Shown in pieces: positions 2,744 to 10,794 of a DNA stretch of 46,005 bases. This DNA comes from Gemmatimonadales bacterium (GTDB lineage: Bacteria > Gemmatimonadota > Gemmatimonadetes > Gemmatimonadales > GWC2-71-9): positions 1-46,005 of the forward strand of contig JBFJCP010000033.1 of the NCBI GenBank assembly GCA_041615815.1. Direction: 5' to 3'. The number at the start of each line of letters is the position of its first letter. Position 1 is the stretch's first letter. The notes under the pieces are model-generated. The model was not told the origin of the DNA and searched no databases. It saw only the letters and a list, made by a program, of their open reading frames with translations. A program made the translations under genes and the position numbers.

Positions 2744-3418
2744 TCACCCAGTCCGCTCCCGGCCCCCGGTTCTCCGCTCCCCGTCGAGCGCGTCGATCAT
2801 GGCAACCCTCCGCTGGTGACGTCCCCCGGCAAACTGGGTTGTGAGGAACGTCCGCACGATCTCCCCGCCGAGACGCTCGCCAATGAGAGTCCCACCCAGG
2901 GTGAGTACGTTGGCATTGTTGTGCTCGCGGGCATTCCGCGCCGTGGTGAGGTCGTAGCACAGCGCCGCGCGTACTCCGGAGATCTTGTTCGCGACCATGG
3001 CACTGCCGATCCCCGCACCGTCCACCACGATCCCGAACCGGGTTTCTCCGCTCGACACCCGCTCTGCGACGCGCGCCGCGAACACGGGGTAGTCGACGGA
3101 ATCGGCGTTCTCACACCCTACGTCGAGGACCTCGAAACCCAGCTCGGCGATCACGGGCTTGAGGGCACTCTTGAGAGCGAACCCCCCGTGGTCCGATCCG
3201 ATTGTGACGGTTCGACGGGGAGCAGGGAGCGGGGAGCGGAAAGCGGGCCTGCCCACCTGCTCCCCGCCCTCTGCTCCCTGCTCCCCTTTTTCCAGCACCA
3301 CGCCCAGCCGTCGCGCCAGGTCGTGGGCTGCGGGGGTCACGATGGCTCGTTCCGGCAAACGGAGGCACCCTTGGGCGGCCGCCGCCCGCACGTCTCGCTC
3401 GGTAATGACTCGCGCCAT
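2744..3418 (-). CDS. rpiB: Ribose-5-phosphate isomerase B with extra N-terminal domain
   Basis: IGSDHGGFALK, SVDYP, DGAGIGSAMVANKISGVRAALC, AREHNNANVLTLG, FAGGRHQRRV; about 70 extra N-terminal residues. Confidence 0.93.
   Translation of the reverse strand: MARVITERDVRAAAAQGCLRLPERAIVTPAAHDLARRLGVVLEKGEQGAEGGEQVGRPAFRSPLPAPRRTVTIGSDHGGFALKSALKPVIAELGFEVLDVGCENADSVDYPVFAARVAERVSSGETRFGIVVDGAGIGSAMVANKISGVRAALCYDLTTARNAREHNNANVLTLGGTLIGERLGGEIVRTFLTTQFAGGRHQRRVAMIDALDGERRTGGRERTG
3217..3286. repeat. Imperfect inverted repeat made of 7-bp units, inside rpiB
   Basis: GGGAGCA GGGAGCG GGGAGCG GAAAGCG ... TGCTCCC CGCCCTC TGCTCCC TGCTCCC. Confidence 0.85.
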
Positions 3419-3466
3419 GGTGGAGAGAATGTAGCATCCCGCCCCGCACGGATCACGCCGACGCGG

Positions 3467-4363
3467 TCACTCGTCCGTTCCTCTGATCGCGGCGGTATGG
3501 AGGGACGCTGAGCCGGCATCCTCTGGGAAAGGCCGACGGAGAATGGCACGAATCGCAAATGCCAAGAGGAGTGCCACCGCGAAGGACACCACGACCACCG
3601 GACCCGTGGGCAGGTCCGTCACGTAGGAAGCGAAGAGGCCGGCGACGCTTGCGGCGGTTCCGGTGGTCAAGGCAATCGCCAAGAGCGGGCCCGGCTTCGT
3701 CGTGAACAGAAAGGCGATCACGGCGGGGATCACGAGAAAGCTGAATACGAGGAGGACACCGGCGATGGCCACCGAGGAAGTCACCACCACACCAAACAAT
3801 CCGTAGAACAGGAAATCCCACCAGCCAATGCGCCATGCTCGCTGCTTGGCGTTGCCAGGGTCCAGCGAAATCGTGAGAAATCGATCTCGGAGGAACCAGT
3901 GCACGGCGCCGATGACCGCGTAGATGCCAGCGGTCTTCCAAATCTGCGGCCACGTGACCCATAGGAGACTGCCGGTGAGTAGTTGCTCGACGTGCTCGGA
4001 TCCACGGGGGGCCTGCGCGGCCAGAAGGATCGTGGCGGCAGAAGCCACGACGTACACGATGCCGATGATCGCCTCTTGGGGAACGAACCGGTGTTCCATC
4101 CGGCTGACACTGAGGAGTGCAGCGGCGACCAACGTGGCCCCCAGTCCGATTCCGTATCCGGCGGCATCGGCCGAAATTCCCAACATCGCCTCCAGCCGGT
4201 GCGAGAGCCCGAGATTCGCGGCGGCCCAGCCCATCGCGGCCACCTGGGCGAGCGCGAGGTCCACGAAGATCACACCTCGTGCGATGATGTGAATGCCCAG
4301 ATAGCCGTGGAGTGCCACCAGAACGAGCGACGCCACGAGCGCCGGGAGCATCAGGTCGAACAC
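3467..4363 (-). CDS. Metal (Zn/Mn) ABC transporter permease, ZnuB/ABC-3 family
   Basis: Highly hydrophobic; YLGIHIIARGVIFVDLALAQVAA, EAIIGIVY, LLTGSLLWV, GVLLVFSFLVIPA, DLPTGPVVV. Confidence 0.9.
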   Translation of the reverse strand: MFDLMLPALVASLVLVALHGYLGIHIIARGVIFVDLALAQVAAMGWAAANLGLSHRLEAMLGISADAAGYGIGLGATLVAAALLSVSRMEHRFVPQEAIIGIVYVVASAATILLAAQAPRGSEHVEQLLTGSLLWVTWPQIWKTAGIYAVIGAVHWFLRDRFLTISLDPGNAKQRAWRIGWWDFLFYGLFGVVVTSSVAIAGVLLVFSFLVIPAVIAFLFTTKPGPLLAIALTTGTAASVAGLFASYVTDLPTGPVVVVSFAVALLLAFAIRAILRRPFPEDAGSASLHTAAIRGTDE

Positions 4364-4406
4364 GGGACCCCCAAAGAAGTCACAAGATCAGGAATGCCGT
4401 CTGTCC

Positions 4407-5480
4407 TCAATCCGGGTGCCGCGCCTCAGCTGCCGTGGCCGCGAAGGCGGCGGACAGTCGCTGGATCCAAATGTCGATCAAGGCAAAGTAATCCTCGACC
4501 CCGTCCTCGCCTGCCACGTGTTCGGGGACGATAACGGCACGGACACCGGCGCGATTCGCGACGCGCTCCACCTGTCCGCGGCTGTAATAATTCGCGGCGA
4601 GCAACGTGGCAATGCGTTCCCGCTTGATGAAGTCGATCACGTCACGAACATGCCCGGGCGAAGGGGGAATGCCCGGCTTCGGCTCCACGAACATGGCGCA
4701 GTCGATTCGGAAACGTGCGCTGAAGTACGCCCAATTCTTGTGATAGCACACAATCCTTGTGTCTCGGAACGTTTCGGCCTCGGCCAGCCACCCGCCCACA
4801 TACGAAGTCAGGGGCTGGCCCTCGAACGTTTGTTTCCGTGCGAACTCCCAGAATCCGTACCCCCGTGCCAAGTCGAACACGGTGGCTCCGCCGAGGAGGT
4901 CGATCAGACGATCGCCGAAGGTTCTGCGCAAGATCCGATCCTCAAATGCCTTCAGATTGGCATCGTAGGTAGCACCGTTTGCAGGATCGACCCGCTTGAG
5001 GCCGTTCACGATGTTGCGGGCAATGATGATGGCGTTCACTGGGTCGGCGTGTATGTGGGGATTGCCGAACACGTGGACGTCACCGCCGGTTCTCGAGACG
5101 ACTTCCGGGATCTCCAGCAGCTTGACACCGGAATAGGCCACCACGTGACCAGGAGCCCCTTCGATCACCTTGGGATTGCTGGCCCGATCGAGCAGCGCCG
5201 GGACCCAGAGCTCGAGGTCGAGTCCCGTCGTCACGAACAGGTCTGCCCGCTGGATCATCGCCGCGTAACTCGGGCGGGGATTCACGAAATGGGGATCTTC
5301 GTCACCGCGCGCAATGGCGCTCACCTCACCCAGATCTCCCATGACCTCTCGCGTAATGGCGGCGTAGGTTGGAAGGGTCGTGACGACGCGAACCTTGTTT
5401 TGGGCGAGCGCGATCGTCGGGAGGGCGCCGAGGACCCCGAGGACCGCCAGGGCGATCGATCTCATGCGTGGGTAGATCAT
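4407..5480 (-). CDS. Metal ABC transporter substrate-binding protein, ZnuA/TroA family
   Basis: Signal peptide; VVTT, EDPHF, ADLFVTTGLDLE, GNPHIH, YHKNWAYF, EPKPGIPPSPGH. Start chosen at ATG 5480 (GAGG upstream); 5465 is an alternative. Confidence 0.9.
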   Translation of the reverse strand: MIYPRMRSIALAVLGVLGALPTIALAQNKVRVVTTLPTYAAITREVMGDLGEVSAIARGDEDPHFVNPRPSYAAMIQRADLFVTTGLDLELWVPALLDRASNPKVIEGAPGHVVAYSGVKLLEIPEVVSRTGGDVHVFGNPHIHADPVNAIIIARNIVNGLKRVDPANGATYDANLKAFEDRILRRTFGDRLIDLLGGATVFDLARGYGFWEFARKQTFEGQPLTSYVGGWLAEAETFRDTRIVCYHKNWAYFSARFRIDCAMFVEPKPGIPPSPGHVRDVIDFIKRERIATLLAANYYSRGQVERVANRAGVRAVIVPEHVAGEDGVEDYFALIDIWIQRLSAAFAATAAEARHPD

Positions 5481-5487
5481 CACAGCC

Positions 5488-6789
5488 TCAATACGTCTCA
5501 TGTTTGTGTGGGCCGAACGCCCAGACGGTCTGGAAAAGCACCGTGTGATTGCCCCCCAGCCCGTCGGGTTTCAGGTAGTTGTACTGCAGCCGTAGGCGTA
5601 CCCATTCGCTCTGCCACCATGTGATGCTAGGTGCGATCTGCACGATGTCTGGTTGCGTGCCAAAGGGATCGAGCACGTCCACCCGGGTTCCGAGTATCCA
5701 GCGCCGGCCCGCACGGAGATTGGCCTGGGCGTATCCACCGGATCCCACCAGCTCACCGCCGGCCACCCCAAAGTCCTTCTCGACGAAGTACCACTCGCCC
5801 TTGAGCTGGAAATCACGGTAGAGCGCCTTTCCGGTGGGGGTGTATCGATAGAATACGTCGATGCCGAGGAGCCGACTGTCGAGGCTCGCGTCGGTGTTCT
5901 GCCCGTATACTCCCGTGGCGCCGAGTTGCAGGGTGCTCGGCCCGAAGTCCCAGAAACTCTGGAAGCGGCCCAAGTAACTGATCTCGCTGCCGCCGTCGAA
6001 CAGTGCCTCGTTGTTTCCGAGCGTGACCTGAAACAACGCGGTTTGGGTGGACGGTCCCAGAGGGAACGAGGGGAGCGTCACACCTCCACCGGTTTGAATC
6101 AGACCATCTTCCCCGAGGAACGTCATGGCCGCGAGGGGGCGCTCGACCTCCAACAACGCGTGGGTGTGCCAGCGATTATAGAGCCCGATGTCCTGACGGA
6201 ATTTTCCGATCTTGAGGCCGAGGCCACCCGGCAAGCCCACCCAGTACATGTAGCCTTCTTCGATCTCGAACCGGCCGCCCTCCTCCTCGCCCTCTGCTTC
6301 GGGGAAGCCTGCGATCTCGAAATCCTCTTCGCGAGCGATGAAGATTTTGGCATGCGTGTATGGATCGAGCGCCGCTTGAAAGGAGAACTCGAACTCCCGC
6401 GGGGTACTCGCGAACCGGTGGCCTTCGCCATCAGGCTTCGTGAAGTTTCCGACTATATCTCCGGTCGCACTGATCTCTGGATTGAGAATCGAGAGATTGC
6501 GGGTTCGACTCTCCTGTTGAGCCGATGTATCGGGTGCCGCCTGTGCGGCGGCCTCGGCGGCCTGCGCCGCCGCCGCCCGCAACTGGGCGAGTTCGTCTAT
6601 CGCCGCCGTGGTATCCCGGCCCTGTTGGATGAGCTGCCGGAGTAGCCGTTCCAGCGAATCCAAACGCGCTTTGAGCTGGCGAATTTCTTGTTCCAAGGAG
6701 TCGGCTCGTTGCCGGTCCACCTGCGCTTCGAGTGGGTTCCCGATGAGGGTGACGGCGACGAGCGCGCTCAACACTAGCGTGCCTTGCAT
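5488..6789 (-). CDS. Outer-membrane beta-barrel protein with N-terminal coiled coil, probable metal uptake porin
   Basis: SD AGGGAG before ATG 6789; signal peptide MQGTLVLSALVAVTLIGNPLEAQ; coiled coil; LNPEISATGD, IEEGY, GKFRQDIGLYNRWHTH; amphipathic beta strands; His-containing C-terminus FGPHKHETY. The longer 7137 start in the track is unlikely. Confidence 0.8.
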   Translation of the reverse strand: MQGTLVLSALVAVTLIGNPLEAQVDRQRADSLEQEIRQLKARLDSLERLLRQLIQQGRDTTAAIDELAQLRAAAAQAAEAAAQAAPDTSAQQESRTRNLSILNPEISATGDIVGNFTKPDGEGHRFASTPREFEFSFQAALDPYTHAKIFIAREEDFEIAGFPEAEGEEEGGRFEIEEGYMYWVGLPGGLGLKIGKFRQDIGLYNRWHTHALLEVERPLAAMTFLGEDGLIQTGGGVTLPSFPLGPSTQTALFQVTLGNNEALFDGGSEISYLGRFQSFWDFGPSTLQLGATGVYGQNTDASLDSRLLGIDVFYRYTPTGKALYRDFQLKGEWYFVEKDFGVAGGELVGSGGYAQANLRAGRRWILGTRVDVLDPFGTQPDIVQIAPSITWWQSEWVRLRLQYNYLKPDGLGGNHTVLFQTVWAFGPHKHETY

Positions 6790-6875
6790 GCGCTCCCTTG
6801 CTCCTATTCCGTCGATGGATTCGGCCGGCGCGAATATTGGCGCCGGCATCGCGGTTACCGCGTGGGAGGAGCGCG
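6790..6875 (-). promoter_or_regulatory. Putative translational attenuator: RAPP codons pair with the downstream SD; two internal hairpins
   Basis: mRNA GCGCUCCU (6874-6867, in the R-A-P codons) is complementary to GGGAGCGC (6797-6790, SD immediately before the porin ATG). Hairpins CGCGG-UAA-CCGCG (6862-6850) and GCCGGCGC-N8-GCGCCGGC (6847-6824). Confidence 0.6.
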
Positions 6876-7196
6876 GGCGCTGAGGGCGCCGAGGGGGTCC
6901 GGTCGAACGTAGGGGGCACGATCTGGGGTGATCGGGGTCATCCAGTTGGTGGCTTGCTCGGTGGTCCGGTGTACGACCGCAGCCGCGGCGAAATGGTACG
7001 CGCCGCCCGGGACACACAACGCGTCGGAGTGCAGGCGCGCGCAATCGTCGGTGTGCCCGGCCTCCACCGCCGATTGGGCGGCGATGACCTCGAACTGGGC
7101 GTGGATCGATGGCAGGAGCGCCCAGCTCAAGAGACACAGCATGATGAGCGGCGAGCCCGGCGTACCGGGCTGCGCTCTCCAGTCTCGGGGCCTCAT
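6855..7196 (-). CDS. Small leader protein with hydrophobic segment, His/Cys cluster and C-terminal RAPP motif (DUF2946/CruR-like arrest peptide)
   Basis: ...LIMLCLLSWALLPSIHA...GHTDDCARLHSDALC...PDPLGALSARAPPTR*. Start uncertain (7208, 7196 or a later Met). Confidence 0.7.
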   Translation of the reverse strand: MRPRDWRAQPGTPGSPLIMLCLLSWALLPSIHAQFEVIAAQSAVEAGHTDDCARLHSDALCVPGGAYHFAAAAVVHRTTEQATNWMTPITPDRAPYVRPDPLGALSARAPPTR

Positions 7197-7249
7197 CGTA
7201 GCATTCATTATAACGGTTCGGTGGCCACGGGGATCCGGGAGCTTCTCGG

Positions 7250-8440
7250 TCAGCGGGCCGAGCGCATACTGCTTCCCGAGATTCTCTCCATCAACAGCTC
7301 GCCCACACGCGTATTCCGAATGAGTCCCCCAAAATGCTCGGCGCCCGGGCCAATGGCAAAAAGTGGGATCATCTCTGCGGTATGGGCGATCGTTGTGTAT
7401 GCCTCCCGGAAGGTGCCGGTGCTGTCGAACTGGAGTGCGAGACCTCCGGTCTCATGATCGGCAACCACGACGACCAGGGTCTCGGGGTGTCGGGCTTGGT
7501 AATCCAGTGCCACGCCCACGGCACGATCCAGATCCAGCATCTCGGCCTCGACGGTCGCCAGCGGCTGGTTGCCATGGCCGCGCCAGTCCGGTTGCGATCC
7601 CTCCACCATGAGGAAGAATCCCTCCGGGTCCTTGTCCAGCACCCGAAGCGCCGCCTCCGTCATCTCTGGCAGGGTAGGGGACCGGTCCGGGACCCATGCG
7701 GTGTCGGCCACGGTGAACGAGGAGTCGAGCATACCGCTTTCGCCATCGGGAATCGGGATCACCTCTTGGCGCGTCGTCACCTCAGGCCGCACGGCCCCGG
7801 GCATGTGACTCACCGCAAACATGCCGAACAACGCGCGGACGGTATCGAGTTCGAGAGACCGGAGCTCCAGTGGTGTCTCGATGTAGGTGTAACGTTCGAG
7901 GATCTGTGAGCGGAGATCCAACGAATCCGGCCGCTGCGCGGCATCGTAAATGGCTGCACCACCGCCCATCACGACGGTCACGTCGTGCTCCAGGATTTGC
8001 TTTCCGATCTCCCACTCCAATAACCGGCTGGATACGTGTGCGGCGAATGACGCCGGCGTCGCGTGGGTGATGCGGGAGGTGGCGATGAGACCGGTCGACA
8101 TGCCGCGCTTCTGCGCGACTTCGAGGACCGTCTCGAGCGCCGTGGTATCCGGTCCCACCCCGATGGCCCCATTATAGGTCCGCACCCCCGTCGCGTAGGT
8201 TGTCGCGCTCGAGGCGCTATCGGTCACTTTGCTATCGGAGGATTGCGTATCCACCAATCCCACAACCGGAAAGGCCTGCGCCGCAAGAGAATCTGCAGCC
8301 ATCCAGGCCGCGGTCCAATACGCGATGCCGGCCCCGTCCCCGATGAAGAGGATCACCCGCGTGGGCGCGTCCTGGGCACCGAGCGGTATGGCGGCACCCA
8401 TCCATCCCAACACGGTCCCGGCCAATAGCAATCGTCTCAT
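7250..8440 (-). CDS. phoA: Alkaline phosphatase (PhoA family), secreted
   Basis: Signal peptide; VILFIGDG, VTDSASSAT (catalytic Ser), THATPASF, GFFLMVEGSQPDWRGH, VVADHETGG, HTAE. Confidence 0.92.
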   Translation of the reverse strand: MRRLLLAGTVLGWMGAAIPLGAQDAPTRVILFIGDGAGIAYWTAAWMAADSLAAQAFPVVGLVDTQSSDSKVTDSASSATTYATGVRTYNGAIGVGPDTTALETVLEVAQKRGMSTGLIATSRITHATPASFAAHVSSRLLEWEIGKQILEHDVTVVMGGGAAIYDAAQRPDSLDLRSQILERYTYIETPLELRSLELDTVRALFGMFAVSHMPGAVRPEVTTRQEVIPIPDGESGMLDSSFTVADTAWVPDRSPTLPEMTEAALRVLDKDPEGFFLMVEGSQPDWRGHGNQPLATVEAEMLDLDRAVGVALDYQARHPETLVVVVADHETGGLALQFDSTGTFREAYTTIAHTAEMIPLFAIGPGAEHFGGLIRNTRVGELLMERISGSSMRSAR

Positions 8441-10095: not shown

Positions 10096-10794
10096 CTACC
10101 CTCCCTCGTCGCGCGAACGGGCCCGCAAGCGAGCCAGGAAGGAAGCTCCCGGTGGGCCCCGTTCGCGGTCTTCCAACCGCGTCTCGGCCTCTGCCGCGCG
10201 GCGCTCCAGCTCGAGTTTCGAGCGTCGCAGACGTTCCACGAGCTCCCGTTCCTGCACGAGCGCTTCACGCAGCGCGTCCAACTCTTCGGTCAGCTCCACC
10301 GCCTTGGGATCCCGGTTCGCCGCAGGCACGTCCTCGGACGCGGTCGCCGGGAGGGCCTGTCGGGACTCACGGGTCAGACGGTCGACGATGCCATCGAGGA
10401 TCACATGCTGTCGTTCCACCGCCTCACCCAACCGCACGATCTCTCGCACCATCTGCCACATCACTTCCTGTCGTTCGATCTCCCGGTTCAGACGCGTGGC
10501 GAGGACGGGGTCATGCGGCTGCGTGGCAGGGAGGGGCGCCTGAGCCTCCGGCACCGTCTCGACGGACACCGCCGCACCCAACGCCGCCTCGATGTCCTCG
10601 CGAGTCCGCCCTGCGGCATAGAGATTGGCAATTTCCCCCAGCACCTCGGCGGCTTCGGTCGGGTAGCGACGGCGGCGTCCCCTCCCCACCGTGGGGACAT
10701 ACGCCGCAAATGCGTCCCGGTAGTAGCGCACCGTCGATTCGGGGAGCTGCAATTGCTGGGCGATGTCGCGCAGGGTGCGAAGGGGCTCACCCAT
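10096..10794 (-). CDS. MerR-type HTH protein with C-terminal coiled coil (RacA-like architecture)
   Basis: TLRDIAQQLQLPESTVRYYRDAF...GRRRRY (MerR HTH); heptad-rich C-half; ends in an amphipathic SFLARLR segment. Confidence 0.75.
   Translation of the reverse strand: MGEPLRTLRDIAQQLQLPESTVRYYRDAFAAYVPTVGRGRRRRYPTEAAEVLGEIANLYAAGRTREDIEAALGAAVSVETVPEAQAPLPATQPHDPVLATRLNREIERQEVMWQMVREIVRLGEAVERQHVILDGIVDRLTRESRQALPATASEDVPAANRDPKAVELTEELDALREALVQERELVERLRRSKLELERRAAEAETRLEDRERGPPGASFLARLRARSRDEGG

Follow-up and report, generated by a model that had tools for sequence, protein, structure and literature searches.

The window, a 46,005-nt stretch of a Gemmatimonadales genome, carries on its minus strand a short upstream open reading frame (uORF) followed by genes for an outer-membrane porin, a ZnuA-family solute-binding protein (SBP), and an ABC-3 permease. 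On the basis of the sequence, an orthologue alignment, and profile searches, the uORF (positions 6855 to 7196, minus strand) is predicted to encode a DUF2946-like arrest peptide of 113 aa, hereafter the leader. As described in the first-pass annotation of this DNA, it ends in RAPPTR (stop codon at 6857-6855), and a gap of 65 nt separates the stop from the porin ATG at 6789. The ATG at 7196, which gives 113 aa and lies 10 nt after a TATAAT box, was taken as the leader start; an in-frame ATG further upstream, at 7208, was ruled out because it overlaps this −10 box (7212-7207).

A hydrophobic signal or anchor segment occupies approximately residues 15 to 33 of the leader (7098 to 7154, minus strand) and ends in a possible IHA site, at which cleavage is putative. 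This segment, noticed earlier as signal-like, is conserved in the alignment and falls within a helix at residues 15 to 39 of the AlphaFold model, which is otherwise unfolded (pTM 0.33) and contains no folded metal site. Alignment conservation points to H32, E45, H48, C52, H56, and C61 as putative metal ligands (7014 to 7103, minus strand), the last four of which form the cluster HTDDCARLHSDALC and reproduce the previously reported H-x3-C-x3-H-x4-C pattern. The spacer that follows had been called Pro-rich, which is accurate for its second half but not for its first. The RAPP arrest motif is encoded by CGC GCT CCT CCC (6864 to 6875, minus strand), with a predicted P-site codon at 6869-6867 if the stall register is taken from the available portions of PMC12992588 and PMC10987492.

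The predicted leader promoter (7207 to 7236, minus strand) consists of GGATCC (7236-7231), an 18-nt spacer, and the TATAAT box, and its assignment is consistent with the enrichment of TAnnnT across leaders: among the 47 leaders with a single candidate ATG, the motif occurs at −18 to −4 in 32, compared with 5/154 internal ATGs, and a Shine-Dalgarno (SD) sequence is present in 9. We infer that the transcript starts at the leader's own promoter and is near-leaderless. A sigma-70 scan made no call at this promoter because its −35 element is not TTGACA. Two promoter types were observed among the orthologous loci (L001 to L080), with a TTGAC-like −35 element in 18/70 and GGAAC/GGATC in 18/70, both preceding a TAnnnT box; the latter element (window 7231-7236) could be a −35 element specific to Gemmatimonadota. 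An AT-rich stretch resembling a Fur/Zur box is absent near most leader promoters, by a crude test in which 4 loci scored.

The porin (433 aa; 5488 to 6789, minus strand) has N-terminal helices and a predicted 16-strand barrel without a plug, in a model that lacked the first 21 residues (pLDDT 88.7). Its top Foldseek matches are Omp32, MOMP, OmpT, and OprP, and porins only are present among the matches listed. A TonB-dependent receptor, comprising a 22-strand barrel and a plug, was rejected as an identity on the strength of the 16 long strands, the porin matches, and the lack of a Plug match in Pfam. The sequence gave no Pfam match over the cut-off, and sequence searches found no solved homologue; nearly all homologues returned are named "hypothetical protein," a plasmid search yielded one hypothetical match, and an Atlas lead gives Porin_O_P for 22% of one cluster. 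A conserved C-terminal GPH[KR]HExY at the porin tail (5488-5514) could serve as a metal site in the periplasm or as a motif for SBP docking.

The SBP (4407 to 5501, minus strand; PF01297, E 1.2e-42) has three His motifs, and its PDB matches are YfeA, Lmb, and AdcA. The permease (3467 to 4363, minus strand; PF00950, E 3.7e-32) is ZnuB-like and has no ATPase gene after it. The locus thus contains the non-TonB barrel and ZnuA/ZnuB-like pair recognized at first pass, although as an ABC metal-uptake operon it is incomplete, since only the SBP and permease are encoded; a ZnuABC-type importer has the SBP, permease, and ATPase together. In the 80 loci bearing relatives of the porin, the SBP is found downstream in 75 and the permease in 74, the remainder ending at contig ends, and an ATPase gene is found downstream in none of the 80 by a query that recovers 38 ATPase stretches from the genome. 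Within this genome, the best metal-ATPase-like match belongs to a separate SBP-permease-ATPase operon that appears Btu/Fec-like by eye, and the SBP-permease pair may share the ATPase of another system or function with none. Planctomycetota loci possess two permease genes. One ZnuA and one ABC-3 gene were found in the genome (95.7% complete), along with two Fur-family genes whose best scores are as Fur and PerR, both below all cut-offs; no clear Zur and no MntR match was found there.

The 80 loci, mostly from Gemmatimonadota and Planctomycetota, were used to assess conservation of the leader, with 3 dropped for having less than 400 nt of upstream DNA by start call. A leader ending in R[AGS]PP precedes the porin orthologue in 71/77 assessable loci: 70 passed the leader rule, and L050 was added after a miscalled start. 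The resulting alignment contains 71 members (the window and 70 others). When all six frames of the 4.19-Mb genome were searched, an R[AG]PP ending followed by zero to eight residues and a stop was found on 41 ORFs of 90 codons or more, or approximately 0.0015 per 300 nt, so that the occurrence of this ending before the porin orthologues is not due to chance. The conservation upstream of orthologous barrel genes that the first-pass annotation had made a check of its proposal is therefore present for the RAPP ORF.

In six of the 77 loci (L010, L028, L035, L008, L007, and L029), no leader immediately precedes the porin. The L010 sequence contains an N gap, and L007 and L029 have no leader. In L028, the promoter is kept and an internal deletion leaves an APP remnant of the leader, while in L035 (upstream of 3929-4001) the porin sits directly at the leader's promoter. 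The leader of L008 lies ahead of a second porin copy, after the permease (L008:7322-8397). At a further locus, a leader-like ORF of 110 aa (L045:3230-3559) begins 38 nt past the permease, which suggests a second leader-gated unit.

Within the alignment, C61 and the R, P, and P of the terminal motif are invariant (71/71). The His/Cys residues are also conserved: in the 62 rows from outside the Planctomycetota, the six ligand positions hold H/D in 54, E in 56, H in 53, C in 57, H in 57, and C in 62. The nine Planctomycetota rows use H...CxxC. Overall, C-x2-3-H-x3-4-C is found in 52/71 members, CxxC ending at C61 in 14/71, and CxxC starting at C61 in 11/71; the earlier distinction of His/Cys from CxxC ligands holds for the window but defines a subtype, as CxxC members exist at the same loci. 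The distance from C61 to the Arg is 46 in the window, 43 to 48 in 71/71, and 45 to 47 in 67/71, and RAPP is followed by two residues in the window and by one to five in all 71. RAPP is kept while six different Arg codons occur, indicating selection as protein. The leader could in principle be an ordinary small exported metal-binding protein without cis regulation, as the six loci without it directly upstream of the porin, and the placement of the porin at the leader's promoter in L035, might suggest. The invariant C-terminal RxPP, the fixed spacing across a nonconserved spacer, the lack of a predicted fold, and the complementarity to the ribosome-binding site (RBS) of the next gene described below make this highly improbable.

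Assignment to a known family was less direct. The window leader has no match to PF11162 at an E value of ≤1, and its Pfam and NCBIfam scans were empty; 13/71 leaders match PF11162 at this threshold, weakly (best, 0.0018), so the suspected DUF2946 relationship is visible by HMM in some members but not in the window copy. As a lead, Atlas neighbours of the leader carry the name putative DUF2946 at 0.96. Compared with DUF2946/CruR, the leader has C-x3-H-x4-C in place of CxxC and shares both the C-terminal RAPP and the approximately 45-residue Cys-to-RAPP distance. Because it neither matches PF11162 nor contains CxxC, it is termed DUF2946-like rather than a DUF2946 member; judged by its sequence, it is a divergent uORF of the CruR/CutF type. 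The rule for CutF-like leaders, as stated in the available part of PMC9973294, specifies fewer than 150 aa, an N-terminal signal, PP within the last 15 residues, and a same-strand gene within 1000 nt. The leader has 113 aa, the hydrophobic helix, PP at −4/−3, and a same-strand gene 65 nt away, and its Cys/His site precedes metal-homeostasis genes, as in CutF-like leaders.

A profile of the leader retrieved 1532 cluster representatives at an E value of ≤0.001 and matches in 43/61 related genomes; no paralogous leader scored in the window's own genome. The related genomes returned 30 loci: 21 in which the leader precedes the porin (5 of them repeats of earlier loci or the window), 6 with a TonB-dependent receptor next, 2 with a TolC-type gene next, and 1 at a contig end. 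Since related leaders head both TonB-dependent receptors and TolC-type efflux genes (L092, L096, L102, and L106 to L110), the ligand set fixes neither the metal nor the sign of the response, and the leader family may act with both signs.

The R-A-P codons had been proposed to be complementary to the SD of the barrel gene. The ribosome-binding region of the porin (6790 to 6805, minus strand), identified from the sequence and the fold, contains two tracts, AGGAGC (6805-6800) and GGGAGCGC (6797-6790), and the leader's GCUCCU can pair with either. The complementarity thus exists, but the minimum free energy fold uses AGGAGC and not the GGGAGCGC tract originally named; moreover, the part that co-varies across the family is not R-A-P but Pro-Pro and the next four codons (+6 to +24 from the Arg codon). 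Predicted folds and complementarity place the anti-SD segment in the codons around RAPP to the stop (6852 to 6881, minus strand), where it would lie under the predicted stalled ribosome. The two hairpins expected between these elements are both recovered in the predicted fold, at 6862-6850, with the stop codon as its loop, and 6847-6824 (together 6824 to 6862, minus strand), and close a multiloop. In the window, pairing between the RAPP codons and the 10 nt immediately preceding the ATG has a probability of 0.00 to 0.78, depending on which of 21 folding windows is used. The cost of opening the RBS drops from 9.8 to 3.1 kcal/mol once the covered segment is removed, and with 60 nt of upstream context the gain from masking is just 1.5 kcal/mol. 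The window's cognate specificity ranks 41/70, with a synonymous-codon test p of 0.115.

Across the family, duplex energies of the leader RAPP segment with cognate and noncognate porin RBSs were compared, giving a z of −6.2 (n = 70; L005 was dropped for an uncertain start). In sliding windows, the signal peaks at +6 to +24 from the Arg codon on the leader side (z −7.1) and at −24 to −6 from the porin start (z −6.5), and upstream control windows on the leader side reach at most z −2.8. For the same 43 loci, the znuA RBS control gives z −1.8 versus −5.5 for the porin RBS. The GC-adjusted value is −6.7, and retaining one leader per cluster gives −5.8, −4.6, and −3.25 at 53, 37, and 19 clusters. 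In 13 new, out-of-sample loci, z is −1.8 versus −1.5 for the control, with CCT in 2/13; a result as weak is given by 14% of 13-locus subsets drawn at random from the discovery set. The Planctomycetota alone (n = 9) give z −0.8. The locus-specific complementarity of the leader 3′ end with the porin RBS therefore has statistical support at the sequence level, with weak replication.

Codon choice and folding were examined in the same set. The first Pro codon is CCT in 40/71 leaders, compared with 7.9 expected from porin codon usage and with 15.7% in genomic APP, and the CCT share among the leaders is 35 to 49% after clustering; CCU-CC is the anti-SD core. RBS opening was calculated for 65 loci, 6 having been dropped (5 with a weak SD, plus L005). 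Without the covered segment, opening is cheaper by 2 kcal/mol or more in 43/65; with 60 nt of upstream sequence, the gain is at least 2 kcal/mol in 28/65, and pairing of the SD with the RAPP region has a probability above 0.5 in 18/65. Foreign segments close the RBS nearly as well as a locus's own (median, 9.5 versus 10.4; own stronger in 38/65 and weaker in 27/65) because Pro-Pro codons are SD-complementary by nature. The cleanest leader-RBS helix was seen in the six-locus L013/L022 clade, where a 13-bp helix contains two compensated pairs; the helix was read off the same sequences, and 22/500 shuffles match it.

Since RAPP peptides arrest translation when their first Pro occupies the P site, the Pro-Pro-plus-tail segment would lie inside the ribosome. 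An SD-masking stem within reach of a stalled ribosome, as in the SecM/CutF mechanism, is predicted in silico, subject to the weak 13-locus replication. With somewhat better than even confidence, we favor a model in which scarcity of a metal, probably zinc, leaves the ribosome translating the leader stalled at RAPP, thereby unmasking the porin RBS, while bound metal releases the stall and closes the site. By default, the ribosome would stall at RAP-P, with the first Pro in the P site by analogy with CruR, CutF, and ApdA/ApdP, leaving the porin RBS free and the uptake genes translated. When metal is present, the His/Cys cluster would fold and pull the chain free, translation of the leader would end, and the multiloop would close over the porin RBS. 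As a second layer, Rho may then terminate the untranslated porin mRNA. The off-with-metal sign is expected because the targets are uptake genes.

The same arrest leader could instead have CruR-type Rho-dependent termination as its main output, with the stalled ribosome shielding a C-rich rut site and RBS pairing secondary. CruR works in this manner, rho is present in the genome, and C exceeds G by more than 0.1 in 68/71 leaders at −30 to +30 around the Arg codon; the window itself has 31 C versus 13 G at −60 to 0. Termination of the CruR type may therefore act instead of, or in addition to, RBS masking, with which it can coexist. In the last 20 leader codons, C/(C+G) at third positions is 0.616, compared with 0.533 in the porin, but the synonymous C bias over the whole spacer is not significant (39/71, p 0.22), and a rut site predicts no locus-specific complementarity to the porin RBS; Rho as the main output is considered unlikely. 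Neither of the two terminator-like sites in 3300-7400 falls in the leader-porin intergenic region, which has no intrinsic terminator; a T-rich run is found in 11/71 such regions. For a metal riboswitch or other RNA element, Rfam gave 0 matches at an E value of ≤1 in 6600-7400.

Zinc is the likeliest signal: the SBP has three His motifs (71/76 orthologues), a ZIP gene adjoins the permease in two loci (L039 and L047), and no clear Zur was found. The single ZnuA and ABC-3 genes found in the genome, the Fur and PerR scores of its two Fur-family proteins, and the absence of an MntR match also favor zinc. Upstream of the leader lie phoA and nfo, genes for zinc enzymes; neither is used as an argument for zinc, since the leader is served by a promoter of its own and these genes flank only part of the loci. 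The same switch might sense and import Cu, Co, Ni, or Mn, considering that both tested relatives (CruR and CutF) sense Cu, that His-only CutF-like clusters have been proposed as Ni/Co sensors, that 14/71 members have CxxC ending at C61, and that YfeA, which binds Fe/Mn, is the best PDB match of the SBP, with Lmb scoring almost as well. Manganese binders have Glu as the third ligand, whereas the SBP has His; the ZIP neighbours, the presence of Met in the ligand region in 11/71 members only, and the lack of copper genes seen by eye among the first ORFs past the permease also weigh against another metal, which is considered rather improbable. The fuller proposal is that a zinc-sensing arrest switch replaces Zur in Gemmatimonadota, with Pro-Pro codons serving as both arrest signal and anti-SD, a near-leaderless mRNA, a dedicated zinc porin, and an ATPase-less ZnuA/ZnuB pair; taken as a whole, it is possible but doubtful.

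The closest precedent is CruR (Bp2923) of Bordetella pertussis, a DUF2946/PF11162 peptide for which the available text of PMC9426467 reports a Cys 45 residues before RAPP and that of PMC12992588 reports arrest in vitro. The leader resembles CruR in being the first gene of an uptake operon and in its export signal, Cys-to-RAPP spacing, long intergenic region, C>G bubble, and expected off-with-metal response. It differs in its ligands (H/D-E-H-C-x3-H-x4-C versus CxxC), its target (a plug-less porin with ZnuA/ZnuB versus a TonB-dependent Cu receptor), the gap to that target (65 versus 162 nt), and its hosts (Gemmatimonadota and Planctomycetota); CruR is Rho dependent, whereas the evidence for the leader points to RBS masking rather than Rho alone. 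In the cutF-cutO system of Rhodobacter capsulatus, stalling on a DUF2946-like exported leader melts an SD-masking stem, according to the portions available of PMC9973294 and bioRxiv 10.1101/2025.02.05.636593. The leader shares this arrangement, its own stem being predicted, yet CutF has CxxxC and PPP, and its stall is induced by metal to turn on a detoxifying oxidase. The CutF stem is also intergenic, in contrast to the one predicted here, whose 5′ arm is formed by the arrest codons and tail. As far as these sources extend, sensing is cytoplasmic in CruR and periplasmic in CutF, and the leader may follow either.

SecM and the RAPP-type Sec monitors ApdA/ApdP and uDF_RQH sense export pulling and control secA/secDF, per the accessible sections of PMC10951233 and PMC10987492. 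The predicted behavior of the leader is like that of SecM/ApdA/ApdP in its RAPP-type arrest, in which the P site holds the third residue, and in the exposure of a downstream SD by the stalled ribosome; these monitors have no metal site, whereas the leader has a putative one. A leader that monitors Sec pulling or periplasmic disulfide status rather than metal would fit with the signal-like segment in all members and with two conserved Cys that might pair in a disulfide of the kind suggested for CutF without metal. The three conserved His and the Glu alongside the Cys, and targets that are metal transport genes and not sec genes, make such a monitor very unlikely.

The kind of system is already published (CruR, CutF, and RAPP uORFs). 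The suggestion that a His/Cys, non-copper variant might be undescribed needs adjusting: the available part of PMC9973294 reports CutF-like clusters whose sites are Cys, His, or mixed, and puts forward non-copper His-rich members. RAPP uORFs precede many gene classes, as reported in the available portion of PMC12992588, and its source data place them ahead of "zinc-regulated" receptors in at least 9 rows among 25 "zinc" places. Those leaders, set beside the present one by description, have 95 to 132 aa and His/Cys, end in RAPP, and precede genes of ∼1.2 to 1.5 kb; one is annotated DUF2946, most are CxxC-type, and "zinc" occurs 0 times in the main text as available. Neither a zinc-sensing RAPP leader nor RAPP codons as anti-SD appeared among the literature matches listed, and published supplements may list the leader family. 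The additions made here are a complementarity test resolved by position and accompanied by controls, together with the codon bias, the promoter architecture, the natural leader deletions, and the missing ATPase.

As a variant of the copper-sensing leader peptides, the leader likely switches uptake on in metal (probably zinc) scarcity. In the parts of the literature compared, metal sensing by nascent-peptide arrest has been shown for copper alone (CruR and CutF), and the CruR paper remarks that a Zn riboswitch had not been described (PMC9426467). If true, a zinc version would mean that zinc homeostasis in uncultured phyla has an additional, post-transcriptional route, here in a genome without a clear Zur. 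The compensating complementarity provides exact mutations that would separate RBS masking from Rho attenuation, and both the plug-less porin and the ZnuA/ZnuB pair lacking an ATPase may be new components of zinc transport.

A second CutF-like leader with His/Cys was observed at G000:C21, at approximately 10170-10500 (L113:1471-1800, minus strand). It ends in SPPPRA, has TATTAT just before its ATG, and heads apparent TolC/HlyD/CusA efflux genes, a known arrangement. Past its stop codon, CCTCTCC matches GGAGAG ahead of the next ATG.
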